Counted from the first letter of the stretch, positions 12,379 to 55,298 are shown. The stretch: DNA of 64,000 bases from an uncultured Clostridia bacterium (GCA_944372675.1 CALVZW010000001.1:137-64136); one strand, 5' to 3'. The notes: generated from the sequence alone by a model not told the origin. Numbers and translations: made by a program.

Positions 12379-12436
12379 ATAATACACCATATTTAGTGTA
12401 TTATAAACTCATAATACACAATATAAGGGGTAATAT
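12379..12436. repeat. palindrome doublet, locus A (two 26-bp units in 32-bp phase)
   Basis: ATAATACAC-CATATTTA-GTGTATTAT at 12379-12404, linker AAACTC, then ATAATACAC-AATATAAG-GGGTAATAT at 12411-12436. The second unit contains the SD (AAGGGG) and abuts the ATG at 12437. Confidence 0.9.
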
Positions 12437-13117
12437 ATGATTGATTACATACAAAGAACTGCAAGAAAAACACTTTCAATAATAATTAATGAAAAAGGTG
12501 AAGTAACTGTAAAAGCACCTAAAAGAATGTCAGAAAGTGATATCTATAAATTTGTACAATCAAAAGAAAAATGGATTAACTCAAAAGTTAATTCAATTAA
12601 ACAGCAAAATGAAATTAATAATGATTTATTTAATTATAAATGTATTTTGTTTTGTGGCAAAAAATATAGAGTTATAAAAGATACAAAGGCAAAAGATATT
12701 CAATTGGAAGAGGGTATAATAACCATAAAAAAACTTTCTTCATTAAAAAGGGAAGTGCGAGTTTTAGAAAAATTTTTGAAAAACAAATGTTTAGAAATAG
12801 TAGGGCAAAGACTTAAATATTTTTCAAATATAATGCAGTTAGAGCCACAAAAAGTAGTTTTAATGAATTCAAAAAGAAAGTGGGGCACTTGTGATAGTGA
12901 CCAAGTAATATCTTTTAATTGGCGAATAATTATGTTAACACCTAATTTAATTGATTATGTAATTGTACACGAGTTATCGCATTTAATTGAAATGAACCAT
13001 TCTCCAGCATTTTGGGCAATAGTCAGTGCGGTATTACCAAATGTAAAACAATTGAGAAGCACTTTAAAACAATGTAATTTTATTTTACAACAATTTAGAG
13101 AAATTCCTATTGATTAA
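12437..13117 (+). CDS. YgjP-like zinc metallohydrolase (DUF45/M48-like)
   Basis: 226 aa with the C-terminal motif VIVHELSHLIEMNHSPAFW (HExxH) typical of the YgjP family. Confidence 0.75.
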   Translation: MIDYIQRTARKTLSIIINEKGEVTVKAPKRMSESDIYKFVQSKEKWINSKVNSIKQQNEINNDLFNYKCILFCGKKYRVIKDTKAKDIQLEEGIITIKKLSSLKREVRVLEKFLKNKCLEIVGQRLKYFSNIMQLEPQKVVLMNSKRKWGTCDSDQVISFNWRIIMLTPNLIDYVIVHELSHLIEMNHSPAFWAIVSAVLPNVKQLRSTLKQCNFILQQFREIPID

Positions 13118-13150
13118 TATATAATTTAACAGCAATATTAAACAAAATTA

Positions 13151-13184
13151 AGCAGAATATATTGTGGTATTCTGTTTTTTTTTA
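13151..13184 (+). terminator. intrinsic terminator of the ygjP-like gene
   Basis: Stem CAGAATA (13153-13159) pairs with TATTCTG (13168-13174), followed by T9 at 13175-13183. Confidence 0.75.
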
Positions 13185-13765
13185 CATGTAAAATTTATTA
13201 TGTGTTTAAAATTTGGTGTAGGGCGATATTGTTTTTAATATATACATATCTATTCGCTAAAGACAACTTTAGCGAATAGATATAGCAAAAATACCCTAAA
13301 AATAAGATTTTTTTCACAATATTTGTTAAATTTTATACATTATTTATTAAATTTTTTTTATTATATTTAAATAAAATTCTTTGTTTATTTTCAAATATTT
13401 TTGCATTTAATTTTGCATTGTAATCGATTTTTAAAAATTTTAATGAACTTTTATTCGTTTTTATTTTAAAATTTTGCTATAACATTTTTTATTTAATTTG
13501 TTTTATTTTTATAATACTATTAAAAAATATTTTCATAATACCATTTTCATATAATTAAATTTATTTGTAATATATAATACATTGATTATACATTTAAGTT
13601 TGTATAAAATTTATAAATATTTTTATAAATTGAAATTTTGTATTTGTAATTATTATAAGTTTAATTAACATAAATTTTTTTATGCTTGTTGAATTAGTTT
13701 TTTATATTATTATTAAAATTTAATATCAATAATTTAAATAATTAATTTAATATATTTGTATTTAA
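13185..13765. other. gene-free, extremely AT-rich intergenic desert
   Basis: No ORF of 60 aa or more in any frame between 13118 and 13800. This is the longest non-coding stretch in the window. Confidence 0.8.
13246..13283. repeat. perfect 38-bp palindrome (17-bp arms, 4-bp centre)
   Basis: ATATCTATTCGCTAAAG-ACAA-CTTTAGCGAATAGATAT with arms verified base by base. There is no adjacent U-run on either strand. Confidence 0.9.
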
Positions 13766-13794
13766 TTGATAAAAATTAAAAAATTTGATATAAT
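13766..13794 (+). promoter_or_regulatory. sigma-A type promoter with extended -10, positioned for a leaderless recombinase mRNA
   Basis: -35 TTGATA at 13766-13771, a 17-bp spacer, then TGATATAAT at 13786-13794. The ATG is at 13801 with no SD. Confidence 0.55.
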
Positions 13795-13800
13795 CAATGT

Positions 13801-14880
13801 ATGGATAATAATGAAACATACATTCAGCAAAGAGATGCAAAAAATATAATTAAATTAAGAAAATTAAGGGATGAATTACCTGTTTTTTGTTCAGAATTTT
13901 TTATAGGAATTGAAAATACAACAAGTGTTTTAACTAGAATTGCCTATGCACAAGATTTAAATGTATTTTTCAAGTTTTTAACACAAGAAATACCATATTT
14001 TGAGAACAAAGATATTCGCTTAATCGCCCTTTCCGACTTAAATCATGTAACTGCTGAAAATATAGAATTATTTTTAGACTATTTAAATTTATATTATAAC
14101 AATGGTAAAAAAGTTACAAATAATGATAAGGCAAAAGCAAGAAAACTTGCAACAATACGTAGTTTATTTAAGTATTTTTACAAAAAAAATAAAATTGAAC
14201 AAAATGTTGCGCAAAAAGTTGATATGCCTAAAATTTATAATAAGACTATTGTACGATTAGAGCCTAATGAAGTTGAAAATTTATTAAATATTGTGGATAA
14301 TGGTGATGTTTCATTAACTAGACAACAAAAAGATTTTCATAAGCACACCAGAACGCGCGATTTAGCAATTTTAATGTTATTTTTAGGTACTGGTATAAGA
14401 ATTAGCGAATTAGTTGGAATAAATATTAAAGATATTAATTTTGATGAAAATTCATTTGTTATAACTCGTAAAGGCGGTGACCAATATATACTTTATTTTT
14501 CAAATGAAGTTGCAAACGCCCTACTCCATTACAAAGTGCTTAGAGAACAAATAAAGACTAAAAATCCTCAAGATAATGATGCATTTTTTCTATCATTACA
14601 AAATAAAAGAATTACTACAAGAGCAGTACAAAATTTAGTCAAAAAATATAGTAAAATCGCATCTCCATTAAAGAAAATATCACCGCATAAATTAAGAAGT
14701 ACTTATGGAACAAATTTATATCAACAAACGCACGATATTTATATTGTTGCAGATGTTTTAGGACATAAAGATGTTAACACTACTAAAAAACATTATGCTG
14801 CCATTAGTGAAAATATAAGAAAAGATGCTTCAAAACATATTAAATTAAGAAATAATGATGAAGATAATTATGATGACTAA
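13801..14880 (+). CDS. site-specific tyrosine recombinase, Xer family (long, XerS-like architecture)
   Basis: 359 aa with catalytic pattern GIRISEL (Arg I), HKLRST (His/Arg II) and LGHKDVNTTKKHY (His, Tyr). The N-terminal SAM-like core-binding domain is longer than in typical XerC/D. Confidence 0.8.
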   Translation: MDNNETYIQQRDAKNIIKLRKLRDELPVFCSEFFIGIENTTSVLTRIAYAQDLNVFFKFLTQEIPYFENKDIRLIALSDLNHVTAENIELFLDYLNLYYNNGKKVTNNDKAKARKLATIRSLFKYFYKKNKIEQNVAQKVDMPKIYNKTIVRLEPNEVENLLNIVDNGDVSLTRQQKDFHKHTRTRDLAILMLFLGTGIRISELVGINIKDINFDENSFVITRKGGDQYILYFSNEVANALLHYKVLREQIKTKNPQDNDAFFLSLQNKRITTRAVQNLVKKYSKIASPLKKISPHKLRSTYGTNLYQQTHDIYIVADVLGHKDVNTTKKHYAAISENIRKDASKHIKLRNNDEDNYDD

Positions 14881-15076
14881 TTGTTTTACAGTTTTTAATT
14901 TAAATAATAATTAAAATTTAATTTTATAATCTATTAAATTTTATTTATTAAAAGTTTGTAAAATTTACAAATTTTATTATGTTTAATTATTATTTTTAAT
15001 TTTTAAACATTTTTTTGTGAATATAAAGGTATTTGATAACATATTTAAATAAACATATTTTTAATCAAAAAAACTT

Positions 15077-15090
15077 AGAACAATTGTTTG
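15077..15090. promoter_or_regulatory. LexA (SOS/Cheo) box upstream of lexA
   Basis: AGAACAATTGTTTG compared with the Firmicutes consensus CGAAC-N4-GTTCG. It ends 7 bp upstream of the lexA -35. Confidence 0.6.
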
Positions 15091-15097
15091 ATAATGA

Positions 15098-15126
15098 TTG
15101 ACAAAAAGTTTTTTATATGGTATACT
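15098..15126 (+). promoter_or_regulatory. lexA promoter
   Basis: -35 TTGACA at 15098-15103, a 17-bp spacer, then -10 TATACT at 15121-15126. Confidence 0.65.
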
Positions 15127-15154
15127 CAAGAAAAATACAAAGGAGAATATAATT

Positions 15155-15787
15155 ATGGCAAAAAATAATCAAAAAATTGACTATATGCTAGATTATATCG
15201 CATCTTACTCAAAAGATAATGGATTTCCCCCAAGCATACGAGAAATTCAAAATAAATTTAATTTTAAGTCGACTTCTACGGTGTCATATTATCTTAAGAA
15301 ATTAGAAGAAAGAGGCGATGTTGTTAGCAAAGGTAGAAAAAATAGAACATTAACAATTTCGCCAAGATATTATGATGAGCATCCGGAATTATCAAAAAAA
15401 TTCTTAGATAAAGATTTTAATTTAATTCCCCTACTCGGTTGTATAACTGCTGGTCAACCAATTTTAGCTGAAGAAAATTATGATGAATCATTTTTTATTC
15501 CAACTAACTTGTTTAGAGGTGATAACTTATTTATGCTTACAGTAAGTGGTGAAAGTATGATTGAAGCAGGTATTTATGATGGGGATAAGATTATCGTTCG
15601 TAAACAAGAAACAGCCGAAAATGGTGAAATTATTGTTGCTTTAATTGAAAATTCTGCTACAGTTAAAACTTATTATAAGGAAGAAAATAGAATTCGTTTG
15701 CAACCCGAAAACTCAACAATGCAACCGATGTACTTTGATAATATTAGTATTTTAGGTAAAGTTATTGGTTTAATTAGAAAAATGTAA
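15155..15787 (+). CDS. lexA: LexA repressor
   Basis: Start at MAKNNQ, with SD AAGGAGA upstream. The ORF-track start at 15098 lies in the promoter. It has an N-terminal wHTH and a C-terminal S24 peptidase with the GESM serine and the VKTY lysine. Confidence 0.92.
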   Translation: MAKNNQKIDYMLDYIASYSKDNGFPPSIREIQNKFNFKSTSTVSYYLKKLEERGDVVSKGRKNRTLTISPRYYDEHPELSKKFLDKDFNLIPLLGCITAGQPILAEENYDESFFIPTNLFRGDNLFMLTVSGESMIEAGIYDGDKIIVRKQETAENGEIIVALIENSATVKTYYKEENRIRLQPENSTMQPMYFDNISILGKVIGLIRKM

Positions 15788-15841
15788 TACACAAATTGTT
15801 GTGTATTATAAAAGTAGAATACACAATATAAAGTGTATTCT
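15784..15841. repeat. palindrome doublet, locus B (overlaps the lexA stop; the second unit doubles as a terminator)
   Basis: GTAATACAC-AAATTGTT-GTGTATTAT at 15784-15809, linker AAAAGT, then AGAATACAC-AATATAAA-GTGTATTCT at 15816-15841. The stem extends to 12 bp (15813-15844) and is followed by T8. Confidence 0.9.
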
Positions 15842-15990
15842 ACTTTTTTTTAAAAATTTTACAATTATAAATTTATAAAATTAAAGTAAATAAATACTGT
15901 ATTATATCTAATAATTTTATTTTAATTATCAATTATATTTAATTATATATTGATAAAAATTATTTGAATAATTATATTAAAATTATTTAA

Positions 15991-16962
15991 TTATTTAACA
16001 AATTGTTTATATTTTTGTAATACAAATTGAATTATATTTTGTTCATCTTGTAAATTTTCATTATTCATAAATATAATATTTTTTGTGTATCTTTTATACC
16101 AAGTTATTTGTCTTTTAGCATAATTTCGAGAATGTTGTTTAACTTTTTCAATAGCATTGTTTAATGTATCATTGCCATTAAAATAATCAAAAAATTCTTT
16201 ATAGCCAATTGCATATGACACTTGTAGTTTTTTATTTAATTTGTTTTGCAAATCGAAAATATATTTTGCTTCTGTTAATAGTCCATTTTCTAACATTTCA
16301 TCAACTCGTGAATTAATATCATTATATAATTTTTCTCTATCCTTATTTAAAAAAATTATAAAATATTCATAAGGTGAATTTTCAAAATTATTTTTGTTTT
16401 GTCTTATGTTAGATAATTTTTCATTTGTGGAATGACAAATTTCTAATGTTCTAATAATTTTTTTGGTATCGTTAATGTTTAATTTTTTTGCCGTTTGTTC
16501 ATCTACTTTTAGCAACAAATTATATAATGCTTTTTTCCCCTGCTCTTCAAGAATTTTATTTAAACATTTGCGATATTCTTCGTCTTTTTGACATTGTGCA
16601 AAATCATAAGGGAATAAAAGGCTTTCAATATATAAACCGGTTCCACCTACTATTATTGGCAGTTTTTTATTTTGATATATTAAATTTATTTGTTTAACTG
16701 TATCATTTTTAAATTCTGCAGTACTATATTCTTCTTCAATATTTTTTATGTCAATATTGTAATGAGGATATTTTTTTAGCAATTTTTCATCAAGTTTTGC
16801 AGTTGCAATATTACATTGTCTATAAATTTGCATTGAATCGGCAGAAATTAAAGAACAATTTAAAATATCATAAAGTTTAAGTGCTACTTTTGTCTTACCT
16901 ACACCTGTTGGGCCTGCTAATATAAGCAAAGGTATTTTATTTATAGTACTCGTTTGAACCAT
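15991..16962 (-). CDS. miaA: tRNA dimethylallyltransferase
   Basis: 323 aa with P-loop GPTGVGKT and the miaB-mutS-mutL-miaA synteny. Confidence 0.9.
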   Translation of the reverse strand: MVQTSTINKIPLLILAGPTGVGKTKVALKLYDILNCSLISADSMQIYRQCNIATAKLDEKLLKKYPHYNIDIKNIEEEYSTAEFKNDTVKQINLIYQNKKLPIIVGGTGLYIESLLFPYDFAQCQKDEEYRKCLNKILEEQGKKALYNLLLKVDEQTAKKLNINDTKKIIRTLEICHSTNEKLSNIRQNKNNFENSPYEYFIIFLNKDREKLYNDINSRVDEMLENGLLTEAKYIFDLQNKLNKKLQVSYAIGYKEFFDYFNGNDTLNNAIEKVKQHSRNYAKRQITWYKRYTKNIIFMNNENLQDEQNIIQFVLQKYKQFVK

Positions 16963-19106: not shown

Positions 19107-19109
19107 TTT

Positions 19110-21704: not shown

Positions 21705-21715
21705 TTCTTCCTCCG

Positions 21716-25581: not shown

Positions 25582-25615
25582 AAAAAATCACGAAATATAT
25601 TCGTGACTTTTTTAA
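25582..25615. terminator. bidirectional intrinsic terminator (PBP gene / rpmA)
   Basis: A-run, stem TCACGAA (25588-25594) pairing with TTCGTGA (25600-25606), then a T-run. Confidence 0.7.
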
Positions 25616-28017: not shown

Positions 28018-29118
28018 ATGAAAATTTGCGGAATAATATGCGAACTTAATCCGGCACATAACGGACATAAGTTTTTAATTGAAGAAGTAAAACGGAAAAC
28101 TAATTGTGATTTAGTCATAGCAATTATGAGTGGAAATTTTGTTCAGCGTGGCGAACCTGCTATATTTGACTACCAAACTCGTGCACAAATGGCTATAAAT
28201 GTTGGTTTTGATGCTGTTATTTATTTGCCAACGGTTTACACTTTAAATTCGGCTGAAAATTTTGCTGGGCAGACTTTGTTTGTAGCAAGTCAATTTAATT
28301 TAGATTATTTAGCATTTGGAGTAAACTCTAATGAAGAAATTTTATATAAAATTAATGATTTAAAACAAAATGTTGATTTTAATAATTTAATTAAAAACAA
28401 TTTATCAAAAGGCTTTTCATTTTCAAATTCGTTTAGTAAAGCAGTTTATGAAAAATTGCATACAAATATAACTGCTAATGATATTTTAGCACTAGAATAT
28501 TTGTCAGTTATTGATGATAAAAAATATAATTTTACACCAATTATTATCAATAGAAATAATGAAATATCAGCAACAAAAATACGAAAGTTAATTTTGACAA
28601 AGCAATTTGACAAACTTTCTAATATGATTGATGAAAATAATTTAAATTTAATAAAAAAATCTAAAGTCAATAACTATAACAAATTTAATATGGTTATTTA
28701 TTCCAACATAATATCAAGTACGAAAGAAACCTTAGTAAATATAAAAGATATGCGTGAAGGAATTGAAAACAAAATATACAACGCAAATTCCAATACACTA
28801 TATGGTTTAAATAAGCAAGTAAAATCAAAAAGATACAATCAAAAATATTTAAATAGATTGTACTTAAATATATTATTTGGCATAACAAAAGATTCTAATG
28901 TTATGCTTCCCTATTTAAAAATTGTTGCAGTAAAAAATAAAACTGTTTTAAATAATTTAAAGTGTAAATTGCCTTTAATTACAACTTTAAAAAATAAAAA
29001 TATTTTAAATGAAAATAGCATTTATGATTACGATATCTTAAGTTCAAAAATTTATAATTCCGTTAATAAAATAAATTCCAATGCTTTCCCATATCAAAAA
29101 ATTATAATACACAATTAA
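28018..29118 (+). CDS. tmcAL: tRNA(Met) cytidine acetate ligase (YlbM/UPF0348 nucleotidyltransferase)
   Basis: The N-terminus GIICELNPAHNGHKFLI...MSGNFVQRGEPA matches the YlbM/TmcAL pattern. Confidence 0.8.
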   Translation: MKICGIICELNPAHNGHKFLIEEVKRKTNCDLVIAIMSGNFVQRGEPAIFDYQTRAQMAINVGFDAVIYLPTVYTLNSAENFAGQTLFVASQFNLDYLAFGVNSNEEILYKINDLKQNVDFNNLIKNNLSKGFSFSNSFSKAVYEKLHTNITANDILALEYLSVIDDKKYNFTPIIINRNNEISATKIRKLILTKQFDKLSNMIDENNLNLIKKSKVNNYNKFNMVIYSNIISSTKETLVNIKDMREGIENKIYNANSNTLYGLNKQVKSKRYNQKYLNRLYLNILFGITKDSNVMLPYLKIVAVKNKTVLNNLKCKLPLITTLKNKNILNENSIYDYDILSSKIYNSVNKINSNAFPYQKIIIHN

Positions 29119-29161
29119 TTGCGTATTATAAAAATATAATACACTACATTTAGTGTATTAT
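29104..29161. repeat. palindrome doublet, locus C (overlaps the last codons and stop of tmcAL)
   Basis: ATAATACAC-AATTAATT-GCGTATTAT at 29104-29129, linker AAAAAT, then ATAATACAC-TACATTTA-GTGTATTAT at 29136-29161, followed by a T-run. Confidence 0.9.
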
Positions 29162-33001: not shown

Positions 33002-35077
33002 ATGAATAGAAATTTGCAAACTTTATTAAACCCTAAATCTATTGCTCTAATCGGCGCATCAAACAAAATAGATTCCGTTGGTTATAGATTATTAAACAAT
33101 ATCATTAACGGTGGATATGAAGGAAAAATTTATCCTATTAATCCCAAATACGATAATTGTCAAAATTTAAAATGTTATAAATCTATCAATGATTTACCAC
33201 AAATTCCCCAACTTGTCATCATAGCAATCCCTGCTAAATCTGTTTTTGAAACAATTGTACAATGTAAAGATTTTGGAGTTCAAAACTTTTATATTATTAC
33301 ATCAGGATTTGGCGAACTTAATCAAGAAGGAAAACTTATTCAACAAAAAATTTCTGATTATGCTAAAGATAATGAATTAAATATTATCGGACCTAACACA
33401 ATTGGCTTTGTAAATAACAAACTTATGTTAAATGCAAATTTTGGGCAATCAAAATGTAAAAATGGAAGCATTGCCCTACTCAGCCAATCGGGCGCATATT
33501 TAAGCGGTATTATGAATATTATTGAAAATTCACAAATTGGACTAAAATATGCAATTAGTTTTGGAAATGCTTGTGATGTAAAAGTTCACGATTTAATTGA
33601 ATGTTTTAATAACGACAAAGATATTACACAAATTTTAATGTATCTTGAATCAATACCTTGTCCTAAAGAATTTATGAAAATTTGTAAAAAATGCAATAAA
33701 AAAATTATTTGCATAAAATCTGGTCGCAGTGCCAAAGGTGCTAGTGCAGCATCATCACATACTGGTACACTTGCAAGTTCTGATGTAATTGTAGATTCCT
33801 TTTTGAAACAATGCGGAGTAATGAGAGTTGATTCAATTTCACAAATGGTGGACCTTGCAACAATTTTTGCAACTACAAATAATTTTGAAACGGCAAAAAA
33901 TGCAGTAATAATTACGAACGCAGGTGGCCCTGCTATTATGGCGGTAGATGCTTTAAGCAACAATGGAATTGATTTATATAATTTTACTGACGATGAAAAA
34001 TCATATATGAAGTCATATTTACAAAGTCAAGCATCAGTAAAAAATCCAGTTGATATGGTTGCATCTGCTTCGGTTGATGACTACAAAAAAACTCTTGAAT
34101 TTTGTATTAATAATGAAAAAATTGATGCAATTATTTGTATACATTTATACATTATGGGTACAAAATCAATTGAAATAGCAGAAATTGTTGACAAATTAAA
34201 AGAACAACATCCTGATAAATTAATTATGGGAATTTTCATAACTCATCAAAATGAATTACTAGAAATAAAAAACAAAGTAAAACATCTACCAATTTTTGAT
34301 TCTAGTGAAAACATTGCTGATGCTTTAAAATTTGCAACTAAAAAAATTGAAAAATTAAAAATACAAGAAAAAATAATTAAAAATAAAAATATAGACAAAA
34401 TTATATTACAAGCAAAAAAAGAAAATAGAGAATTATTAACTACTTACGAATCTTTGGAAGTTTTAAAGGAACTAAAATTGCCATTAGTAAAATACGCATA
34501 TGTTAAAGATATCGAAACTGCTAAAGAACAAGCCAAACAAATTGGGTATCCAGTTGTTGTAAAAATTACATCAAAAACTATCACTCATAAAAGTGATGTT
34601 GGCGGTGTAAAAGTTGGAATTCAAGACGAAAACCAATTAATAAAAGCATTTGAAGAAATTAATATTAGTTTAGCAAAAAATAACTGTTTAGATGGTCTTG
34701 ATGGTTTTATCATACAACAAATGAAATCGTCAAATCGTGAATTTGTTTACGGAATTGTTAAAGATAGTCAATTTGATTTATGTTCAATGTTTGGGCTTGG
34801 TGGCATATTTGTTGAAGCATTAAAAGATGTATGTTTTAAAGTTTTGCCAACAAGTGAAATTGATATTGAAAATCAAATTAAAAGTTTAAAATCTTCTTCA
34901 TTGCTTAACAAAATTAGAAATTTACCACCTGCTAACTTAGAAGTTTTAAAAGATATTATGTTAAAAATTAATAATTTTGCTTTAAGTTATGACATAAAAG
35001 AATTAGACCTTAACCCAATTTTAATTGAAGATAAATCTGGCGAACCTGTTTTAATTGATGCTAGAATAAAAATATAA
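33002..35077 (+). CDS. acyl/acetyl-CoA synthetase (ADP-forming), fused CoA-binding and ATP-grasp domains
   Basis: 691 aa. The N-terminus LLNPKSIALIGASNK..VGY is a CoA-binding domain. It also has succinyl-CoA-synthetase-like flavodoxin domains and a C-terminal ATP-grasp (GYPVVVKI...HKSDVGGV). Confidence 0.75.
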   Translation: MNRNLQTLLNPKSIALIGASNKIDSVGYRLLNNIINGGYEGKIYPINPKYDNCQNLKCYKSINDLPQIPQLVIIAIPAKSVFETIVQCKDFGVQNFYIITSGFGELNQEGKLIQQKISDYAKDNELNIIGPNTIGFVNNKLMLNANFGQSKCKNGSIALLSQSGAYLSGIMNIIENSQIGLKYAISFGNACDVKVHDLIECFNNDKDITQILMYLESIPCPKEFMKICKKCNKKIICIKSGRSAKGASAASSHTGTLASSDVIVDSFLKQCGVMRVDSISQMVDLATIFATTNNFETAKNAVIITNAGGPAIMAVDALSNNGIDLYNFTDDEKSYMKSYLQSQASVKNPVDMVASASVDDYKKTLEFCINNEKIDAIICIHLYIMGTKSIEIAEIVDKLKEQHPDKLIMGIFITHQNELLEIKNKVKHLPIFDSSENIADALKFATKKIEKLKIQEKIIKNKNIDKIILQAKKENRELLTTYESLEVLKELKLPLVKYAYVKDIETAKEQAKQIGYPVVVKITSKTITHKSDVGGVKVGIQDENQLIKAFEEINISLAKNNCLDGLDGFIIQQMKSSNREFVYGIVKDSQFDLCSMFGLGGIFVEALKDVCFKVLPTSEIDIENQIKSLKSSSLLNKIRNLPPANLEVLKDIMLKINNFALSYDIKELDLNPILIEDKSGEPVLIDARIKI

Positions 35078-35082
35078 TTAAA

Positions 35083-35131
35083 AAATGAACTATTTGCAAT
35101 TTTAAATTAGTTGCATTAAGTTCATTTTTTG
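35083..35131 (+). terminator. intrinsic terminator of the acyl-CoA synthetase gene
   Basis: Outer stem AATGAACT (35084-35091) pairs with AGTTCATT (35119-35126), with inner TGCAA/TTGCA pairing and a T-run. Confidence 0.55.
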
Positions 35132-35204: not shown

Positions 35205-35262
35205 ATAATACACAACATATTGCGTATTATATTTTTATAATACTCAATATCTAATATTCGAA
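35205..35262. repeat. palindrome doublet, locus D (second unit decayed)
   Basis: ATAATACAC-AACATATT-GCGTATTAT at 35205-35230, linker ATTTTT, then a left arm ATAATACTC at 35237-35245 with no matching right arm. It overlaps the stop of the 86-aa gene. Confidence 0.8.
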
Positions 35263-35511
35263 TCTAAAATCGCCATTTAATCTTTCGAAAAATCTTATTA
35301 AATCAAAATCTTCTTCTTCAACATCTTGTTCAAATTCATTAAACAATTCTTTTGCCCTAACTTCGTCAATGACATAAAATTTTTGAGTGTTGCCATTATC
35401 ATCTCTTGCCCTATATAAATTAAGACTATTAAAAAAGTTATATGAAAGCAAACTCATTATTGTTCCGATTAAAAATAAACCAATTATAAAACATTTTAAA
35501 ATACTATTCAT
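35251..35511 (-). CDS. small membrane-anchored hypothetical protein
   Basis: 86 aa with an N-terminal TM helix and an acidic C-terminus. Its start overlaps the stop of the upstream gene (TAATG). Confidence 0.5.
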   Translation of the reverse strand: MNSILKCFIIGLFLIGTIMSLLSYNFFNSLNLYRARDDNGNTQKFYVIDEVRAKELFNEFEQDVEEEDFDLIRFFERLNGDFRFEY

Positions 35512-39611: not shown

Positions 39612-39669
39612 ATAATACACTAAATATGGTGTATTATTATTTTATAATACACCATATTTGCTTATTATA
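39612..39669. repeat. palindrome doublet, locus E
   Basis: ATAATACAC-TAAATATG-GTGTATTAT at 39612-39637, linker TATTTT, then ATAATACAC-CATATTTG-CTTATTATA at 39644-39669. The right arm of the second unit is decayed, and its centre is almost the reverse complement of the first unit's centre. Confidence 0.88.
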
Positions 39670-42355: not shown

Positions 42356-42357
42356 AT

Positions 42358-43450: not shown

Positions 43451-43501
43451 ATTACAAACTACTCAACTTTTTTAAGTTTTTATATAAATCAATTTAAAAC
43501 A

Positions 43502-45094: not shown

Positions 45095-45142
45095 ACCGAT
45101 TATTTCTCCTTAAAAATTATACATATTTCTATGTACAAGATA

Positions 45143-45171
45143 ATTGTATATTTTTTTTAATATTTTGTCAA
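45143..45171 (-). promoter_or_regulatory. rny promoter
   Basis: On the minus strand: TTGACA (45171-45166), a 17-bp spacer, then TACAAT (45148-45143). Confidence 0.6.
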
Positions 45172-45384
45172 GCAATTAGTTTATTAAATTAAATAAAAAA
45201 CTATTATAAAATTTTTGAAAGTGTCAGTAATAAAAAAATATAAGTAATTAAGTAATATTACCCATTGCTGATATAACTCTTAGACTATAATTTTTGTAAA
45301 TTTATATAAAAAAACAACATTATATTTTTAGAGAATTTTTATAAAAATATTTCTCCAACTAACATAAATGTTGTTTATTTTTTA

Positions 45385-46374: not shown

Positions 46375-46414
46375 AGTTTACTCCATTTTTTAGAACATAT
46401 TTTTCATAAATACA

Positions 46415-47488: not shown

Positions 47489-48069
47489 TACTCACCCTTT
47501 AGTACATTTTTGTTTTTATAAAAATACTCCACTGTAGAATAAATAACCATAAACAAAGCAAAAGCACCAACAAAATAAACTATATAAGAAATTATATCAA
47601 CAGCAAGTCCACTAAACCAATTTTCTTGTAAATTACTTCCTAAAAACATCATTCCAATTAAAGCAATATCCAACAAAACTGTTTTAAGTTTTCCAGATTT
47701 ATCCGCTGCGATAACTACCCCTTTTGTGCTTGCTACTTGTCTTAAACTATTAACTAAATAATCTCTTGCAAAAATTAATGCACATATTAAAATATATACA
47801 TATAATGGTAAAATTAAATCTATTATTATAATTAATATACCAGCCATTACAAGCAATTTATCTGCTATTGGGTCTAAAAATTTTCCTGTATCTGTAACTT
47901 GATTATTTTTTCTAGCCAAGTACCCATCTAAAAAGTCGGTAGTTGATGCAATCAAAAATAGAATGGTTGCAACAAGTTTGCCATATGGTATACATTCTAT
48001 CATATAAAACGCCATAATAATAGGCACAAGAACTATTCTTGAAATTGTAATTTTATTAGGTAAATTCAT
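47488..48069 (-). CDS. pgsA: CDP-diacylglycerol--glycerol-3-phosphate 3-phosphatidyltransferase
   Basis: CDP-alcohol phosphatidyltransferase motif DFLDGYLAR...G..LDPIADK. Confidence 0.9.
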   Translation of the reverse strand: MNLPNKITISRIVLVPIIMAFYMIECIPYGKLVATILFLIASTTDFLDGYLARKNNQVTDTGKFLDPIADKLLVMAGILIIIIDLILPLYVYILICALIFARDYLVNSLRQVASTKGVVIAADKSGKLKTVLLDIALIGMMFLGSNLQENWFSGLAVDIISYIVYFVGAFALFMVIYSTVEYFYKNKNVLKGE

Positions 48070-48071
48070 TA

Positions 48072-49391: not shown

Positions 49392-49405
49392 TCTTTTTCT
49401 CCGTT

Positions 49406-52084
49406 TTAACCTTTGTCGCCATACAATCTTAAAAATTCTTCCATTGTAATAAAGATTTGTCTAGGCTTTGTGCCATCTGCTTTAGAAATGTATTGTCTTG
49501 CTTCTAATTCATCAACAATGCGTGCTGCTCTGTTATATCCAATGCTAAAGCGTCTTTGAATAGATGAAATTGAACAAATTTGAGTTTCAATAGCATTTCT
49601 AAGTACTGGTATAAAATATTCATCCTTAGTTGCATCAGCACCATCACCAAAACTTGCTTCAGTTGTTTTTTCAACCATAATGCTTTTTTCTATTTCTGGG
49701 TCATATTCGCAAGTGTTATGCTCTTTTATAAATTTAACAATTGATGACACTTCTTGTTGCGTAATAAATGCCCCTAGTAAACGCGTAGGCTCTTCACCGC
49801 GTGGGCAATATAGCATATCACCACGACCAAGCAATTTTTCTGCCCCGCTTTGTTCAATAATTGTTTTTGAGTCATTATAGTTTGTTAACGCAAAAGCAAT
49901 TCTTGATGGCAAATTCGCTTTGATTGTACCAGTAATAACATCTACCGATGGTCTTTGAGTTGCCAATATTAAGTGTATACCGCTTGATCTAGCCTTTTGA
50001 GTAAGTTTAAGTATTTTCTCTTCAATTTCTTTTCTAGTACTAATCATTAAATCGCCTAATTCATCTACCATAATGACTATCTTATACATTTTTTCCAATG
50101 TTCCATCTTTAACTTCGGGCATATCATTGTATTCATCAATACTTCGAACATAATATTGCGCAAAAACTCTATTTCTTCTTTCCATTTCCTCGCAAGCCCA
50201 TGCCAAAGCACTTACTGCTTGTGCTGGTTCAGCAACAACTTTTGGTAAAAGCAAATGCGGTAAATTTTCAAATATAACAAATTCTACATATTTAGGGTCA
50301 ATCAAAATTATTCTTAAATCTTGCGGTGAAGATTTATATAATAAAGAAATGATAACTGCATTCATAAAAACTGATTTACCACTACCTGTTGAACCCGCAA
50401 CTAGAGTGTGCACTAATTTACCTACATCGGACAAAACCGGTCTATTTGTTATGTCTTTACCAAGTGCAAAAGTTAGTGGCGAAGGTGCTTCTCTAAATTG
50501 TTTAGTGTCAATAATATCTCTTAAACCAATGGTATCAACTGTATCATTTGGCACTTCAATACCAAATGCGTTTTTCCCAGGAATCGGGGCTTCGATTCTT
50601 ATTGCTTTCCTACTTTCAAGCACCATAGATATGTCATTAGTGTATTGTAAAACTTTATTAACAGTTACACCTTGTGGCATTTCAAATTCGTATCTAGTAA
50701 TTGCTGGCCCTCTTGTTACGCCAACGCACTTAACAGATATTTTAAATTCTTCAAACTTCTCTTCAATGATTCTTGCCTTTTCTTCATACTTTTCTTGCGA
50801 CATTGAAGGTATGGAACTTTGTGTTGTAAGAAGTTCAAGTGGTGGTCGCACATACTTTGCTTTTCTTTTTGGTTTAGGTGCTTCTTGTTTAACTACTTCA
50901 GTTTTTTGCGTATCTTGTTCTTTATTAAATAAATTATTTAACAAATCATCAGTTGTACTGCTAGCATTATTTGTTTTGTTGTTGTCAAATATAATATTTT
51001 CAGTATTAAATTCTTGATTACTAAAATTGTTTTCTTGTTTACTTAAGCCTAATTTAGTAAATGCATCATCTTCTAAATTAACGTTACTTTCAAAATTTCC
51101 AATTTGTTTTTCATTAAAATCGTCGACAACCGGCGAAACTTTAAATTCGCTAGTATTTTTTTCTTGCAAAATTGTTTTTGGCTTATCAAACAAGTTAGTT
51201 TCATCGCTTTCGTTAAAAATAAATTTTTGAGGCTTTAATGGTGTAACTTGACTACCGTCAATAGCATCTTGCAAAGTTATTGAACCTTTACCATCAATAA
51301 TATTATCAGAACTTATTATACCCGAATAAATAGTTGGGTCAACTTTCGTTTGCTTTACTGGTTCTCGTTTTTTAATATTTATTGGTTTAGGTGTAATTGG
51401 TGTAACTAAATCGTTAATTTTATCTTTTTCATCTTTTTCAATTTTTGCATTTAAAGTTAAAGGCATTGAAATAAAGGTTGGCATACTTTTGTTTTTTTCC
51501 ATTGTTGCGTTTGGAACTTTCATTGTTTGAGTTTTGCTAGATACCTTATTTAATTTCACCTTTTCTGTTGTTGTTGAATTATTTGTGGCTTGTCTAGGTA
51601 TTAGCAAGTGTTTGTGATGAAATTGTTTATCAACACATACACAAAAAAATACAATCATTAAAATGACAAATAAACATATTACGGCTTCAGTAGGCAACAA
51701 CAATCTTAGCGGATAAATGACAAATGAAAAAATTGCTCCAGCAGGAGTAAGATTACTAAACGGATACTCCATACAATCGACAAATGATAAATTATATGAA
51801 CTGCTTGTCAATGCTATGTGTATAATAAACATCATTGAAAAAGCAATAATACATAATGACACAATAAAACTTGGCGTAAATATGTTTTTATATCCCATAA
51901 TTTTGGATACAGACAAAGCAATTAATAGTAAAAGCAAAATATAAATACTTGCACCACAAATGCCTATCAATAAGTGATTTAACAAATCTAAAATTGAAAA
52001 TGATATGCAAATTAGCACAAGTAAAGACACAAACAACACAATCAATGGTGTTGTGTTTTCTCTTGTCAATATTTTACGAATCAT
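49406..52084 (-). CDS. ftsK: DNA translocase FtsK/SpoIIIE
   Basis: N-terminal TMs, a long low-complexity linker, a motor domain with Walker A GSTGSGKSV and Walker B VIMVDELGDLM, and a C-terminal gamma wHTH. Confidence 0.93.
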   Translation of the reverse strand: MIRKILTRENTTPLIVLFVSLLVLICISFSILDLLNHLLIGICGASIYILLLLLIALSVSKIMGYKNIFTPSFIVSLCIIAFSMMFIIHIALTSSSYNLSFVDCMEYPFSNLTPAGAIFSFVIYPLRLLLPTEAVICLFVILMIVFFCVCVDKQFHHKHLLIPRQATNNSTTTEKVKLNKVSSKTQTMKVPNATMEKNKSMPTFISMPLTLNAKIEKDEKDKINDLVTPITPKPINIKKREPVKQTKVDPTIYSGIISSDNIIDGKGSITLQDAIDGSQVTPLKPQKFIFNESDETNLFDKPKTILQEKNTSEFKVSPVVDDFNEKQIGNFESNVNLEDDAFTKLGLSKQENNFSNQEFNTENIIFDNNKTNNASSTTDDLLNNLFNKEQDTQKTEVVKQEAPKPKRKAKYVRPPLELLTTQSSIPSMSQEKYEEKARIIEEKFEEFKISVKCVGVTRGPAITRYEFEMPQGVTVNKVLQYTNDISMVLESRKAIRIEAPIPGKNAFGIEVPNDTVDTIGLRDIIDTKQFREAPSPLTFALGKDITNRPVLSDVGKLVHTLVAGSTGSGKSVFMNAVIISLLYKSSPQDLRIILIDPKYVEFVIFENLPHLLLPKVVAEPAQAVSALAWACEEMERRNRVFAQYYVRSIDEYNDMPEVKDGTLEKMYKIVIMVDELGDLMISTRKEIEEKILKLTQKARSSGIHLILATQRPSVDVITGTIKANLPSRIAFALTNYNDSKTIIEQSGAEKLLGRGDMLYCPRGEEPTRLLGAFITQQEVSSIVKFIKEHNTCEYDPEIEKSIMVEKTTEASFGDGADATKDEYFIPVLRNAIETQICSISSIQRRFSIGYNRAARIVDELEARQYISKADGTKPRQIFITMEEFLRLYGDKG

Positions 52085-52211
52085 ATAATCTCCTTATCAT
52101 TCCGCTATAAGAAAGATTATATCACAAAAAGTTTTTTTACACAACAAAAAACAATGAATTTATTTAACAATTAAAATCATTTATTAAAAATTTTGTCATA
52201 TTTTGTCAACT

Positions 52212-52913
52212 CTAATTTTTAATGTTTAAACATTTTGATACAGTTGTAATAGTTAGTCCATTTTTCTTGCAGTAATCAATAATTGAAGGTAATGCTTCTA
52301 GCGTATTTTTTGTTGGATGCATTAAAATTAAATCGCCATTTTTTAAATTATTAGTTGCCCTTTTTACTATTAAATCGGTATTTTTATCTCTCCAATCAAT
52401 CGTATCCTTTGACCACATTATAGTCTTGTAGTTTAGTGCAGAAGCAACTTGTAAAGTTGTTTTATTAAAATCGCCCGATGGTGGAGCAAATAAATTCATT
52501 TCAACATTAGTTAAACCTTTTACAACTTCGTGACACATATTAATTTCATTGTAATTTTGCTCATAAGTTAATTTTGAATGTTCCTTATGATTAAAACCGT
52601 GATTGCCCAATTCGTGCCCCGCTTCCACAATTTTATTTAATAATTCGGTATATTTATTTGCCCACGAACCACCAACAAAAAATGTAGTTTGTATGTTTGC
52701 TTCTTTTAGTACATCCAGCATCGATTCAATATATTCATTTCCCCAATAAACATTTATCATCAATGAAACTTGTGGCAAATTTGCGTCCCCGCAATAGTAA
52801 GGCTCGTCATTGCTTTGATTAAAAACACTTCTTATACTATTATCGTAAGTAACACAAAACAACGCAAATAACATACAAACAATACATACATTTGATAATA
52901 TTCTATAATTCAT
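52212..52913 (-). CDS. polysaccharide deacetylase (NodB domain, PdaB-like)
   Basis: N-terminal TM or signal sequence, plus NodB motifs TFFVGG and HELGNHGFNH. Confidence 0.75.
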   Translation of the reverse strand: MNYRILSNVCIVCMLFALFCVTYDNSIRSVFNQSNDEPYYCGDANLPQVSLMINVYWGNEYIESMLDVLKEANIQTTFFVGGSWANKYTELLNKIVEAGHELGNHGFNHKEHSKLTYEQNYNEINMCHEVVKGLTNVEMNLFAPPSGDFNKTTLQVASALNYKTIMWSKDTIDWRDKNTDLIVKRATNNLKNGDLILMHPTKNTLEALPSIIDYCKKNGLTITTVSKCLNIKN

Positions 52914-53051
52914 AAATATCTCCGTATATTATCTATATGCTATAAATTTTATTTTCTTAACCATAACGAAAAAATTTTGGACAACTATATAATAAATAAT
53001 TTTACAAAACAAAATAAATATAAAAAACAATCAATTGATTTATAAATCTAA

Positions 53052-53088
53052 TAAAAAAACAAATATAATATTTCATTATATTTGCTTT
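53052..53088 (-). terminator. intrinsic terminator of pnp
   Basis: Stem CAAATATAAT (53060-53069) pairs with ATTATATTTG (53075-53084). The A-run at 53053-53059 gives a U-run on the minus strand. Confidence 0.65.
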
Positions 53089-53133
53089 TAATAATAATTT
53101 AATTTTATAAATTTTTAACAAATTAATTTATTT

Positions 53134-55224
53134 TTAAATTTTTTGTATTAATCTTAAATCAATTCTTCCTCTGTTGTCAACTTTAATAACTTCAACTTTA
53201 ACCTTATCGCCCACAACAACAACATCTTCAGTTTTTTCAATATGTTTGTCGGAAAGTTTTGAAATATGAATTAAGCCTTCTTTAGTTGGAGATAATTTTA
53301 CAAATGCACCAAAATCACTAGTTCTAACAACTTGTCCATTTAAAATCATACCAACTTCAACTTCCATAACAATGCCTTCAATAATTTCTTTTGCTCGTTG
53401 AATCATTTTTGCATCAAAGCCGGCAATAGTAACAAAACCATCATCTTCAATGTCAATTTTTACATTTGTTTCTTCAATTATTTTATTGATACTCTTACCA
53501 CCAGAGCCAATAACATCTTTAATTTTATCAGGGTCAATATTTAAAGTTGCAATTTTTGGTGCGTATGGTGATAATTCAGTTCTTGGCATACTAATTGTTT
53601 CAAGCATTTTATTCATAATAAATAATCTACCGATTCTTGCCTTTTCCAAAGCAGTTCTTAAGATATTTTCATCAATGCCTTTAATTTTAATATCCATTTG
53701 AATTGCTGTAATACCCTTTTCAGTCCCTGCAACTTTAAAATCCATATCGCCATAAAAATCTTCTTCGCCTTGAATGTCAGTCAAAACAAAAGTTTTATCA
53801 TCGGCTTTGATTAACCCCATAGCAATACCTGCAACAGGTGAAGAAATTGGTACACCAGCATCCATCAAAGCAAGTGTAGAACCGCAAACACTTGCCTGCG
53901 AAGTTGAGCCATTTGAACTCAATACTTCTGAAACTGTTCTTATTGAATAAGGGAATTCTTCTTCAGTAGGTAAAACTGGTTCCAATGCCCTTTCAGCAAG
54001 TGCCCCATGTCCAATTTCACGACGACCAGGTGTACGCAACATTTTTGCTTCACCTGTGCTGTAAGGTGGCATATTGTATTGATGCATATATCGTTTTTCT
54101 TCTTCTTGTTGACTAAGCCCATCAATTTTTTGCATTTCACTTAACATACCCAAAGTACAAGTTGTTAAGACTTGTGTTTGTCCACGAGTAAAGACTCCTG
54201 AACCGTGAACTCTTGGAAGCAACCCAACTTGACACCAAATCGGGCGAATTTCATCTAATGAACGACCATCTAAACGAATTCCTTTTTCAACTATTTTATT
54301 TCTTACTTTTTCTTTTGTCATTGCATAAATAGTTGAATTTACAATGGCTTCAATATTTTCCACTTCAGGATATTTTGATGAAAATTCATTTAAACATTCT
54401 TGCTTTAAATCAGCATCTCTTTGCTGTCTTTCTTCACGAATGATTGTGTCAAGTACATAGTTAAGTTTTTCATTAGCGTAATCTTTTACTTCTGCCCTAA
54501 TTTGTGTAGTAAGTTCATCTTCAGTTGTAACGCATTTTTTATCTTTACTAAATTCTTTAATAATTTGTAATTGAAACTCAACTTGTTTTTTAATTTCTTC
54601 GTGTGCTACCATAATTGCTTTAAGCATTGTTTCTTCATCAACGAATTTAGCCCCTGCTTCAACCATTAAAATAGCGTCGTGTGTTCCGCTTACAGTTAAA
54701 TTAAGTAAACTTTTTTCTCTTTGTTCTAAATTAGGATTTAAAATAAATTCTCCATCAACAAGAGCAACATTTACAGCACCAGTTGGACCTTCAAACGGAG
54801 CAGACGAAATGGACAAGGCAATACTTGACCCAAGCATACACAATGCTTCAGGTGCTACATCTGGGTCAACTGAAAGCGGTGTCGCAACAATTGAAATGTC
54901 ATTGTAAAAGTTTTTAGGGAACAATGGTCTTAAAGGACGGTCAATTAATCTTGAGTTTAAAATTGCCTTATCAGAAGGCTTACCCTCGCGTCTTTTGTAA
55001 CTACCAGGTATTTTACCCACTGCATAAAGTTTTTCTTCAAAATCAACACTTAATGGAAGAAAATCAACTCCATCACGTGCTTTATCAGCAACTGTTACAT
55101 TAACCATTACTACCGTATCTTGACATCTTACTAAACAAGAACCATCGGCTTGCATTGCGTATCTGCCTAGTTCTACTTTTACTGGTTTTCCCCCATAAGT
55201 TGTTTCAAATATTTTATTTTCCAT
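53134..55224 (-). CDS. pnp: polyribonucleotide nucleotidyltransferase (PNPase)
   Basis: 696 aa with two RNase PH domains, KH and S1 domains, and the rpsO-pnp synteny. Confidence 0.96.
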   Translation of the reverse strand: MENKIFETTYGGKPVKVELGRYAMQADGSCLVRCQDTVVMVNVTVADKARDGVDFLPLSVDFEEKLYAVGKIPGSYKRREGKPSDKAILNSRLIDRPLRPLFPKNFYNDISIVATPLSVDPDVAPEALCMLGSSIALSISSAPFEGPTGAVNVALVDGEFILNPNLEQREKSLLNLTVSGTHDAILMVEAGAKFVDEETMLKAIMVAHEEIKKQVEFQLQIIKEFSKDKKCVTTEDELTTQIRAEVKDYANEKLNYVLDTIIREERQQRDADLKQECLNEFSSKYPEVENIEAIVNSTIYAMTKEKVRNKIVEKGIRLDGRSLDEIRPIWCQVGLLPRVHGSGVFTRGQTQVLTTCTLGMLSEMQKIDGLSQQEEEKRYMHQYNMPPYSTGEAKMLRTPGRREIGHGALAERALEPVLPTEEEFPYSIRTVSEVLSSNGSTSQASVCGSTLALMDAGVPISSPVAGIAMGLIKADDKTFVLTDIQGEEDFYGDMDFKVAGTEKGITAIQMDIKIKGIDENILRTALEKARIGRLFIMNKMLETISMPRTELSPYAPKIATLNIDPDKIKDVIGSGGKSINKIIEETNVKIDIEDDGFVTIAGFDAKMIQRAKEIIEGIVMEVEVGMILNGQVVRTSDFGAFVKLSPTKEGLIHISKLSDKHIEKTEDVVVVGDKVKVEVIKVDNRGRIDLRLIQKI

Positions 55225-55240
55225 TTATTTACTCCTTTGC

Positions 55241-55298
55241 ATAATACACTATATTTAGTGTATTTTATTATTATAATACCAAATATATGGTGTAATAT
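55241..55298. repeat. palindrome doublet, locus F (in the pnp 5' leader, abutting the SD)
   Basis: ATAATACAC-TATATTTA-GTGTATTTT at 55241-55266, linker ATTATT, then ATAATACCA-AATATATG-GTGTAATAT at 55273-55298. The pnp SD occupies 55232-55238. Confidence 0.88.

Follow-up and report, generated by a model that had tools for sequence, protein, structure and literature searches.

Paired boxes at conserved gene junctions of an uncultured gut Clostridia bacterium are predicted NrdR-type operators that may double as terminator hairpins

Six intergenic loci in the window, the entire 64,000-nt stretch of DNA from an uncultured Clostridia bacterium that was analysed, each carry two 26-bp palindromes with unit starts 32 bp apart, a doublet of 58 bp conserved at six loci of this uncultured gut Clostridia genome. 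All twelve unit starts and the exact 32-bp step to the second unit, as given by the original prediction, were re-found, as were the compensated arm AGAATACAC/GTGTATTCT at 15816-15841, the uncompensated arm change GCGTATTAT at 29121 and 35222 and the convergent genes flanking four of the six loci. Equally, the other terminators in the window do have stems that are unrelated to the doublets and contain more G+C. Neither an RNR gene nor nrdR nor a transposase gene was found within the 64-kb window. The doublets are listed below with their 16-bp boxes, the number of NrdR key positions kept in each box and the orthologous sites in related genomes.

Doublet 1, 12379-12436, no strand assigned: boxes 12384-12399 (ACACCATATTTAGTGT, 6/6) and 12416-12431 (ACACAATATAAGGGGT, 5/6); orthologues L104, L106, L060, L047, L091, L009
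Doublet 2, 15784-15841, no strand assigned: boxes 15789-15804 and 15821-15836 (5/6 each); orthologues L106, L009
Doublet 3, 29104-29161, no strand assigned: boxes 29109-29124 (4/6) and 29141-29156 (6/6); orthologues L080, L096, L118, L035
Doublet 4, 35205-35262, no strand assigned: boxes 35210-35225 (6/6) and 35242-35257 (5/6, G13 lost); orthologues L103, L089
Doublet 5, 39612-39669, no strand assigned: boxes 39617-39632 (6/6) and 39649-39664 (5/6, G13 lost); orthologues L038, L068, L089, L100
Doublet 6, 55241-55298, no strand assigned: boxes 55246-55261 (6/6) and 55278-55293 (5/6); orthologues L039, L023, L031, L053, L063, L105

Doublet 1 occupies a divergent promoter region, with the promoter of a PadR-like gene on one side (10601-12295, minus strand, encoding a protein membrane-anchored by C-terminal helices) and a ygjP-like gene on the other, whose ATG at 12437 is abutted by the second box, which also provides its AAGGGG ribosome-binding site. 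Doublet 2 lies at the convergent lexA/miaA junction, where its first unit contains the lexA stop codon; an A-run is found upstream, T8 downstream and no other terminator-like structure in the gap, and the window reaches its cumulative G-C maximum inside this doublet, at 15817. The first unit of doublet 3, again at a convergent junction and flanked by an A-run and a T-run, contains the stop codon of a PRK13670-type nucleotidyltransferase gene (tmcAL-like). Box 2 of doublet 4 overlaps the 3' end of an ORF on the minus strand (35251-35511), with a canonical bidirectional terminator (35080-35130) 75 bp upstream of the doublet. Doublet 5 is situated between the convergent murG and Sel1-repeat genes in a gap with no other terminator-like structure, and forms a long palindrome, as its second box is approximately the reverse complement of the first. 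Doublet 6, finally, is located in the pnp leader (minus strand) 16 bp from the pnp start codon, between the rpsO terminator (55323-55351, upstream of the doublet) and the pnp ribosome-binding site, and its sequence is identical in four metagenome assemblies.

The pattern ATAATACAC-N8-GTGTATTAT with at most three mismatches recovers 10 of the 12 units, compared to 0.18 matches (maximum two) in shuffled sequence at the same tolerance; decay is more advanced in the units at 35237 and 39644 than in the other ten. A two-box scan of the window scores the six loci at 24.7-38.6 and the best other position at 12.2, while a matrix scan of the window detects no further doublets and only two weak single matches, at 10966 and 33621. 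The 8-nt centres had been described as differing between loci, which they do, but they are not free, and their constrained positions had been overlooked. Position 6 is A in all 12 window units and position 8 is A in 10, with T at position 9 in 11 and at position 11 in 10 of the 12. These conserved centre positions are the main clue to the identity of the doublets, and since their conservation is palindromic, they suggest a symmetric dimer bound to double-stranded DNA and not the loop of a hairpin. Each unit contains a 16-bp box, ACAC-wAwATwTw-GTGT, and the linker between paired boxes is 16 bp at 6/6 loci, which places the box centres 32 bp apart, equal to three helical turns.

This is the anatomy of the NrdR operator, which consists of two 16-bp boxes, both required, separated by a linker of 15-16 bp (PMC13584703), with linkers of 14-17 bp being tolerated. 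The NrdR box has the conserved bases C4, A6, A8, T9, T11 and G13, leaves positions 5, 7, 10 and 12 free and must contain at least 63% A+T from C4 to G13 (PMC13584703). The window boxes keep 4-6 of the 6 key positions, and among 60 boxes from 30 doublets C4 is found in 56, A6 in 56, A8 in 53, T9 in 55, T11 in 55 and G13 in 54, with the variability at positions 5, 7, 10 and 12. The A+T content between C4 and G13 in the 60 boxes (mean 0.86, minimum 0.625) is weak evidence at 27% G+C. In the second box of doublet 6 (55278-55293) the conserved C is displaced by one base, and a one-base shift of C or G in one box is tolerated by NrdR (PMC13584703). Furthermore, a core matrix built from the 12 window units alone was run as a two-box model on E. 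coli K-12, and ranked the validated NrdR operator first in all three 50-kb regions (nrdAB, nrdHIEF and nrdDG), with the box pairs returned being the published ones. The doublets are equivalent to validated NrdR operators. The published regular expression for NrdR box pairs, on the other hand, matches loci 1, 2, 3 and 6 and does not discriminate here, since 20 matches are observed in the 27% G+C window versus 14 in Markov controls. Of the two earlier options, a cooperative protein-binding site is the better one, consensus, box pairing and phase being those of the NrdR operator; the REP/BIME-like copied element, the other option, retains the architecture only (inverted doublets with hairpin potential), set against orthologous positions, some 10 junctions and a window without transposase.

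Among the matches listed, doublets are carried by the same gene junctions in approximately 30 related metagenome-assembled genomes (MAGs), with most matches falling at the same ~10 orthologous junctions; recurring ones include rpsO|pnp, the gap between the PadR-like and ygjP-like genes, the lexA, murG and tmcAL-like gene ends, pheT and spoIIAA. Species sharing doublet positions are ~75% identical in coding DNA. The comparison of orthologous intergenic regions suggested by the original prediction revealed doublets kept at the same junctions within randomised flanks: orthologues share 76% identity within the doublet versus 36-48% in the 60-nt flanks, and the flanking DNA is not alignable. The doublets are phylogenetic footprints. 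Their stem sequence is constant across loci and across genomes of 25-41% G+C, and for the 116 genome loci among the matches listed the distribution of unit offsets has its peak at 32 bp, with 24 cases versus three at 31 bp and five at 33 bp. In other genomes, sites are also found upstream of minD or lexA, where the window has none. No RNR gene adjoins the related doublet sites among those examined, and neither nrdR nor RNR genes were found by tblastn with a validated query in ~1.4 Mb of related DNA. NrdR has been described as RNR-specific with ~3 target genes per genome, and to our knowledge NrdR sites at 3' ends have no precedent. As NrdR proteins bind operators of other species, these sites, close to consensus, should be recognised by any NrdR that the cell possesses.

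Might the doublets act in RNA only, as tandem or long hairpins that serve as bidirectional intrinsic terminators or as 3'-end and processing structures without a DNA-binding protein? That doublets between convergent genes could be bidirectional terminators holds up for loci 2, 3 and 5, where the doublet is the sole terminator-like structure at the convergent junction, but not for loci 1 and 6, nor for locus 4 with its canonical terminator; the A-runs and T-runs reported beside the convergent loci are clear at loci 2 and 3, and the layout of A-run, stem-loop and T-run is seen at these two, partly at loci 4 and 5 and not at loci 1 and 6. Every convergent junction of the window that has no doublet possesses a canonical terminator. 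Folds of -23 to -29.5 kcal/mol are predicted, with U-runs in both directions at loci 2 and 3, and convergent settings are enriched, accounting for 15 of 35 doublets versus 34 of 219 background gene pairs. Covariation of boxes 1 and 2 is mirrored, beyond what would be expected from the family consensus, with a mirror identity of 2.47 of 4 free positions versus a null of 1.61 and 8 of 30 doublets being perfect, and on the sense (transcribed) strand G.U pairs exceed A.C pairs by 16 to 3; together, the mirrored free positions and the G.U excess hint at selection on a hairpin. Doublet 6 would then be a regulatory hairpin of the pnp leader, similar to the one that RNase III cleaves in the pnp leader of E. 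coli. A hairpin, however, requires pairing and not the fixed stem sequence that is retained over the whole range of base composition, the presumed loop positions 6, 8, 9 and 11 are palindromically conserved, and while locus 4 has its own terminator, loci 1 and 6 need none. Moreover, formal pair-count covariation is only marginal, being reached by 34/500 and 2/500 shuffles, and the G.U excess reflects few independent events. No Rfam family matches the doublets. An exclusive role in RNA is thus considered unlikely.

Still less probable is an operator of another regulator, be it the PadR-like protein or a dimeric factor sharing the half-site geometry of NrdR, although the PadR-like gene has a doublet upstream in seven genomes (that of the window and those of the six orthologues of doublet 1), as expected for autoregulation, and PadR operators are built from inverted 4-bp half-sites spaced 8-10 nt, canonically ATGT-N8-10-ACAT. 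The half-sites here are ACAC-N8-GTGT, and the doublets were accordingly rejected as matches to the canonical PadR operator; two boxes at 32-bp phase are not known as a PadR requirement, the conserved centre and the cross-validation in E. coli are specific to NrdR, and a membrane tether is awkward for a factor with ~10 or more chromosomal sites. Very unlikely, in turn, is a REPIN/BIME-like non-autonomous element, mobilised by a RAYT transposase from a single-copy gene elsewhere in the genome and later co-opted. REPINs consist of two REP-like palindromes in inverted orientation that form a hairpin, and the doublets are similarly extragenic and palindromic with a short fixed spacer, have a second box that tends to be the reverse complement of the first, prefer convergent gene ends and have in part been gained or lost between genomes, as upstream of minD and lexA. 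Yet orthologous junctions are shared at ~75% coding identity while flanks are randomised, and no transposase, including a RAYT gene, is found within the 64-kb window. Recurrence of the same ~10 junctions among the matches listed suggests tens of copies at most, and the high copy number with varying positions typical of such elements was not observed among these matches. Variation is confined to positions that NrdR does not read, which indicates selection on function and not recent copying. The least probable alternative by our judgement, and a far-fetched one, are chromosome-organising or fork-arrest sites of the replication terminus, like matS/MatP or Ter/RTP: G-C skew maximum and gene-strand switch coincide at ~15.8 kb, with the maximum inside doublet 2, a gene for an Xer-type recombinase lies 1 kb away and matches in the closest MAGs, among those listed, are mostly in the same syntenic region. 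Against this, the left arm is visible for 16 kb only, other genomes have doublets at pheT and spoIIAA, doublet polarity is not mirrored around 15.8 kb and no dif-like site was found.

With somewhat better than even confidence, each locus is best explained as a predicted two-box NrdR-type operator, and such operators would double as terminator hairpins. The binder, we infer, would be dATP- and ATP-loaded NrdR or another protein that reads the same code, and a tetramer of it might contact the two boxes from the same face of the helix. At ~10 conserved non-RNR junctions of this uncultured gut Clostridia lineage, such operators, embedded in longer palindromes with ATAAT/ATTAT flanks, might have two levels of action. 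Protein bound in the leaders of pnp and the ygjP-like gene would block transcription beside the ribosome-binding site. At convergent gene ends, the palindromes may fold in RNA as bidirectional terminators of A-run, hairpin and T-run, and bound protein could strengthen termination or just be stored there as a reservoir. The position of the doublets away from RNR genes, most of them between gene ends, suggests a possibly broader role of the "single-purpose" NrdR or of a look-alike. That the conserved operator pairs constitute a titration reservoir or nucleotide-gated roadblock terminators, taking NrdR beyond RNR, is speculative and rather doubtful. If true, the pairs would be of high affinity, concentrated near the terminus and mainly between convergent genes, where binding cannot disturb promoters, a reservoir would set the level of free NrdR in analogy to datA for DnaA, and the few pnp, ygjP-like, spoIIAA, minD and lexA members would make the dATP/ATP ratio a signal for RNA turnover, division, sporulation and the SOS response.

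Compared with the known NrdR operators (E. coli nrdAB, nrdHIEF and nrdDG; S. coelicolor nrdRJ), the doublets have the same two partially palindromic 16-bp boxes with the same key and free positions, A+T-rich centre, 16-bp linker and tolerated one-base shift. They differ in being located away from RNR genes, in numbering six within 43 kb versus normally ~3 targets per genome and in residing in many cases at 3' ends of convergent genes. Equally, positions 1-2 and 15-16 and the linker flanks ATTAT/ATAAT are nearly invariant, whereas linkers of canonical NrdR operators are not conserved, and the whole doublet tends towards one long palindrome. With bidirectional intrinsic terminators they share the A-run/stem-loop/T-run arrangement, plainly at loci 2 and 3 and less so at 5, and they hold their place between convergent genes; their stems, however, have only 2-3 G-C pairs, fewer than the other terminators of the window, and are identical in sequence from one unrelated locus to the next and between species, the units come in pairs of fixed phase, and doublets also occur in two 5' leaders and beside a canonical terminator. 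REPINs and BIMEs are likewise extragenic imperfect palindromes in inverted pairs with short spacer and hairpin potential, are often located at the 3' ends of genes and in some cases function as terminators, but comprise hundreds of mobile copies in contrast to few doublets at conserved positions, whose sequence constraints match those of a known protein operator and for which no RAYT gene was seen in the window. PadR operators resemble the doublets in their inverted 4-bp half-sites ~8 bp apart, and a PadR-type gene lies beside one doublet, but the half-site sequence differs and PadR sites are not known to have a two-box requirement or a conserved centre. The dual use as double-stranded DNA motif and terminator hairpin is reminiscent, as an analogy only, of the uptake sequences DUS and USS, motifs read by a protein on double-stranded DNA whose inverted pairs at gene ends also serve as terminators, although those occur thousands of times and have sequences unrelated to the doublets.

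The six doublets, each made of two 26-bp palindromic units, are read here, on evidence that leans towards this view, as NrdR-type two-box operators that would be bound as such, while at convergent junctions the same palindromes would also act as terminator hairpins. What is new is the number and the non-RNR context (RNR, ribonucleotide reductase) of a well-defined operator, which are unprecedented. The window is a 27% G+C chromosome segment of a spore-forming member of the Clostridia with, among others, lexA, miaA, mutL, mutS, recA, ftsK, pnp, rpsO, murG and minDE; near-identical contigs were found only in gut metagenome assemblies. The doublets lie as follows:

12379-12436, locus 1, in the gap separating a PadR-like gene from a ygjP-like gene, the second box touching the ygjP-like ATG
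15784-15841, locus 2, between convergent genes
29104-29161, locus 3, between convergent genes
35205-35262, locus 4, between convergent genes
39612-39669, locus 5, between convergent genes
55241-55298, locus 6, flanked by the rpsO terminator and the pnp ribosome-binding site

Reading of the loci bears out the original prediction of twelve units at six loci, spaced exactly 32 bp start-to-start in every pair. The pattern ATAATACAC-N8-GTGTATTAT with at most three mismatches has 10 matches in the window, all of them within the six loci, against 0.18 in the shuffled window, and a two-box scan of the window scores the six loci at 24.7-38.6 and the next best position at 12.2; a matrix built from the twelve units found no further doublet in the window. 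The six-locus doublet pattern is real and non-random. Two weak isolated unit-like matches in coding regions (10966-10991 and 33621-33646, matrix scores 16.1 and 12.9), which have no partner box, are probably chance matches. Over the twelve units, the box, that is the 16 central bp of a unit, has A6 in all twelve, C4 and T9 in 11 and A8, T11 and G13 in 10; the unit centres, predicted to vary between loci, do so at positions 5, 7, 10 and 12, whereas A6, A8, T9 and T11 are constrained.

An exact-match scan of species-representative genomes gave at least 116 blocks, about half of those listed coming from uncultured gut Clostridia MAGs (25-41% G+C; human, rabbit and chicken gut). The predicted 32-bp pairing extends beyond the window, 32 bp being the commonest partner distance among the MAG matches listed (24 cases, with three at 31 bp and five at 33 bp). 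The contig CALVIT010000005.1, syntenic with the window at ~77% identity, carries doublets at loci 1, 3, 4 and 5, and comparison of orthologous intergenic regions finds doublets at corresponding junctions in related genomes. Recurring junctions were identified by clustering the flanking proteins of the sites.

Recurring junctions and number of genomes, among the matches listed
rpsO/pnp: at least 7
PadR-like/ygjP-like: at least 7
tmcAL-like end: at least 5
murG end: at least 5
lexA: at least 4
pheS/pheT and pheT end: at least 4
nucleoside hydrolase/spoIIAA: at least 4
acs end: at least 3

Site content varies between genomes: some others have a doublet ahead of minD or lexA, where the window has none. 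Each key position (C4, A6, A8, T9, T11, G13) is kept in 53-56 of 60 boxes among the matches listed, and orthologues share 76% identity over the doublet and 36-48% over the 60-nt flanks, which is near random for the composition. Judged by these sequence comparisons, the doublets have the pattern of functional sites that are conserved and form a set of regulon size. The gene pheT is bracketed in four related genomes by one site in the pheS/pheT junction and another after pheT (1501-1558 and 4016-4041 in locus L059; also L029, L098 and L019).

The orthologous positions with randomised flanks, together with a window devoid of transposase genes, speak against the predicted REP/BIME-like copied element; a REPIN-like element is accordingly very improbable, as the same junctions recur with the doublet conserved, which is not what a high-copy mobile repeat would show. 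That another regulator, for example the adjacent PadR-like protein, has the doublets as its operator is slightly less improbable, and the canonical PadR motif ATGT-N8-10-ACAT does not match the doublets, which were rejected as PadR operators on this ground. Least probable are terminus-organising sites. As a recombination site, a conserved multi-copy element is implausible; comparison with the dif sequences of B. subtilis and E. coli revealed no dif-like site (the closest approach to the consensus sequences, 20/28, lies elsewhere), so that a dif or tyrosine recombinase core site was discarded. A DnaA box was also rejected, TAATACACA matching TTATNCACA at 8/9 only if centre position 5 is A, which is true in 7 of 12 units, as were sigma-70 or sigma-E promoters within the doublet, whose weak 9/12 matches are no better than those of shuffles.

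First among the rivals, though in itself unlikely, is a family of hairpins or terminators acting at the RNA level only. The four loci 2-5 do lie between convergent genes, as predicted, and the 35 doublets among the matches listed occupy 15 convergent, 16 tandem and 4 divergent gene gaps, against 34, 152 and 33, respectively, for background gene pairs of the same loci. Every doublet-free convergent junction in the window carries a canonical bidirectional terminator:

5244-5272, canonical bidirectional terminator
10534-10573, canonical bidirectional terminator
25582-25613, canonical bidirectional terminator
62539-62574, canonical bidirectional terminator

At loci 2, 3 and 5 the doublet stands alone; locus 4 has the doublet plus a canonical terminator. 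At loci 2 and 3 the doublet has an A-run on one side and a T-run on the other and is predicted to fold stably as RNA (-23 to -29.5 kcal/mol), weak evidence alone since palindromes always fold. Terminator use of the doublets is thus plausible at some junctions, and the predicted bidirectional role is supported for loci 2, 3 and, less clearly, 5, where the doublet takes the position of a canonical terminator, but leaves loci 1, 4 and 6 unexplained. Neither the fixed stem sequence nor the palindromically conserved centre is explicable by a terminator role, and a site within an operon, as in pheS/pheT, is hard to reconcile with simple termination. In Rfam, the only match in the window is an L21 leader (RF00559, 26520-26594, minus strand; 36.4 bits, just above the gathering score) upstream of rplU-ysxB-rpmA; the doublets as a known RNA family were rejected. 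At doublet 1, box 2 (12416-12436) reads AAGGGGT instead of the consensus AAGTGT exactly where it supplies the ygjP-like ribosome-binding site, 7 nt before the ATG; related genomes have a separate GGAG after the doublet at this junction.

Within doublets, the two boxes tend to mirror each other at the positions not read by NrdR, box 2 approaching the reverse complement of box 1, with a mirror identity of 2.47/4 against 1.61 for boxes paired across loci and a perfect mirror in 8 of 30 doublets against 2% in the null. The permutation p<0.0002 is anti-conservative because orthologues are related; comparison of ten group means gives roughly p=0.01. Coordinated box changes occur in the pnp group (locus L023 versus L053) and the murG group (L089), and at tandem-gene sites the transcribed strand has 16 G.U against 3 A.C pairs, from few independent events. 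Whether scored as one long hairpin or as two unit hairpins, the doublets have 77.1% of cells paired, and the covariation is marginal, the observed score being reached by 34/500 and 2/500 shuffles, respectively. The mirroring may reflect either selection for a long hairpin or a known mutational bias, the correction of quasipalindromes by template switching.

The doublet 2 region has features of its own. The window's cumulative G-C skew reaches its maximum within doublet 2, at 15817 (region 15700-16000), where gene orientation shifts from mixed/plus to almost entirely minus; this peak is probably the replication terminus. Other features of this part of the window are:

10601-12295, minus strand, PadR-family protein of unusual structure (564 aa): a winged helix at the N-terminus and transmembrane helices at the C-terminus, joined by a low-complexity linker of ~300 residues in which N, K, S and E abound; orthologues have 562-667 aa and only 39-65% identity
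12350-12322, promoter TTGACA-17-TAGAAT of the PadR-family gene, conserved in five genomes
13118-13800, 680-bp A+T-rich gap before the Xer-type gene, with a hairpin at 13245-13284; it could hold the cognate recombination site of the recombinase
13801-14880, plus strand, Xer-type tyrosine recombinase, 1 kb from the skew switch, best match XerS below the curated cut-off

Palindromes further afield differ. A scan of viral sequences found 22 palindromes, all single, with no doublet among them; one type, ATAATACGCATTATATTGTGTATTAT, present without a second box in IMG/VR contigs (L122, L127, L130, L134, L135, L142 and relatives; 30-36% G+C), may be a phage operator or packaging-related site. Of the 52 loci that the inner palindrome picked out in metagenomes, nearly all are unrelated simple hairpins, and single perfect palindromes in distant phyla, which have no second box, look like unrelated local operators. 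In three Flavonifractor genomes (L015 4648, L095 7070, L115 2431; 62-69% G+C), ATAATACGCAGTGAACTGTGTATTAT is followed 30 bp downstream by GTAACACACAGTTTATTGCGTGTCAA, a conserved pair clearly non-random at that composition. This is another two-site operator, with a centre unlike that of NrdR sites. Two Nocardia species (L014 3616, L111 2801; 67% G+C) carry a perfect 26-bp palindrome, ATAATACACCCTTAAGGGTGTATTAT, which is probably the operator of a local repressor and has a partial copy 21 bp upstream.

About three quarters of bacteria have NrdR, which is regarded as a dedicated repressor of RNR genes and an antimicrobial target. If a conserved, multiplied set of near-consensus operators stands at non-RNR junctions, either a dATP/ATP sensor has taken on new tasks, with titration, roadblock termination and control of pnp and cell-cycle genes as candidates, or a different protein has come to read this DNA code by convergence. 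Should the favoured reading be true, one palindrome would be both protein operator and RNA terminator. The window contains no RNR gene and no nrdR, tblastn queries with the NrdR of E. coli and that of B. subtilis found no homologue in the window or any related locus fetched, and a protein search with B. subtilis NrdR gave only Bacillus relatives among the best 120 matches.

NrdR operators are defined by two partially palindromic 16-bp boxes, both required, with a 15-16-bp linker, six conserved box positions and at least 63% A+T between C4 and G13 (PMC13584703; PMC12051234). The doublets match this definition in the key box positions and in the 16-bp gap between boxes. The published box-pair regular expression matches loci 1, 2, 3 and 6, with 20 matches in the window against 14 in controls, and is non-discriminating in A+T-rich DNA. 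In a cross-test independent of base composition, the window 16-bp core matrix was applied as a two-box model to three 50-kb stretches of E. coli K-12. Each time the experimentally validated NrdR operator came first and its published box pair was recovered: for nrdA the distance ahead of the gene is 93 bp, for nrdH 120 bp and for nrdD 162 bp. The predicted cooperative protein-binding site is therefore best supported as an NrdR-type operator, by key positions, linker and cross-test, with terminator use in addition. NrdR is described as RNR-specific, with regulons of normally ~three genes; published surveys covered only 500 nt upstream of RNR operons, so that sites away from RNR genes would have escaped them. 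Binding by NrdR proteins extends to operators of other species, and canonical NrdR linkers are not conserved (PMC13584703), unlike the inner flanks GTATT...AATAC of the doublets, which are invariant in 30 doublets.
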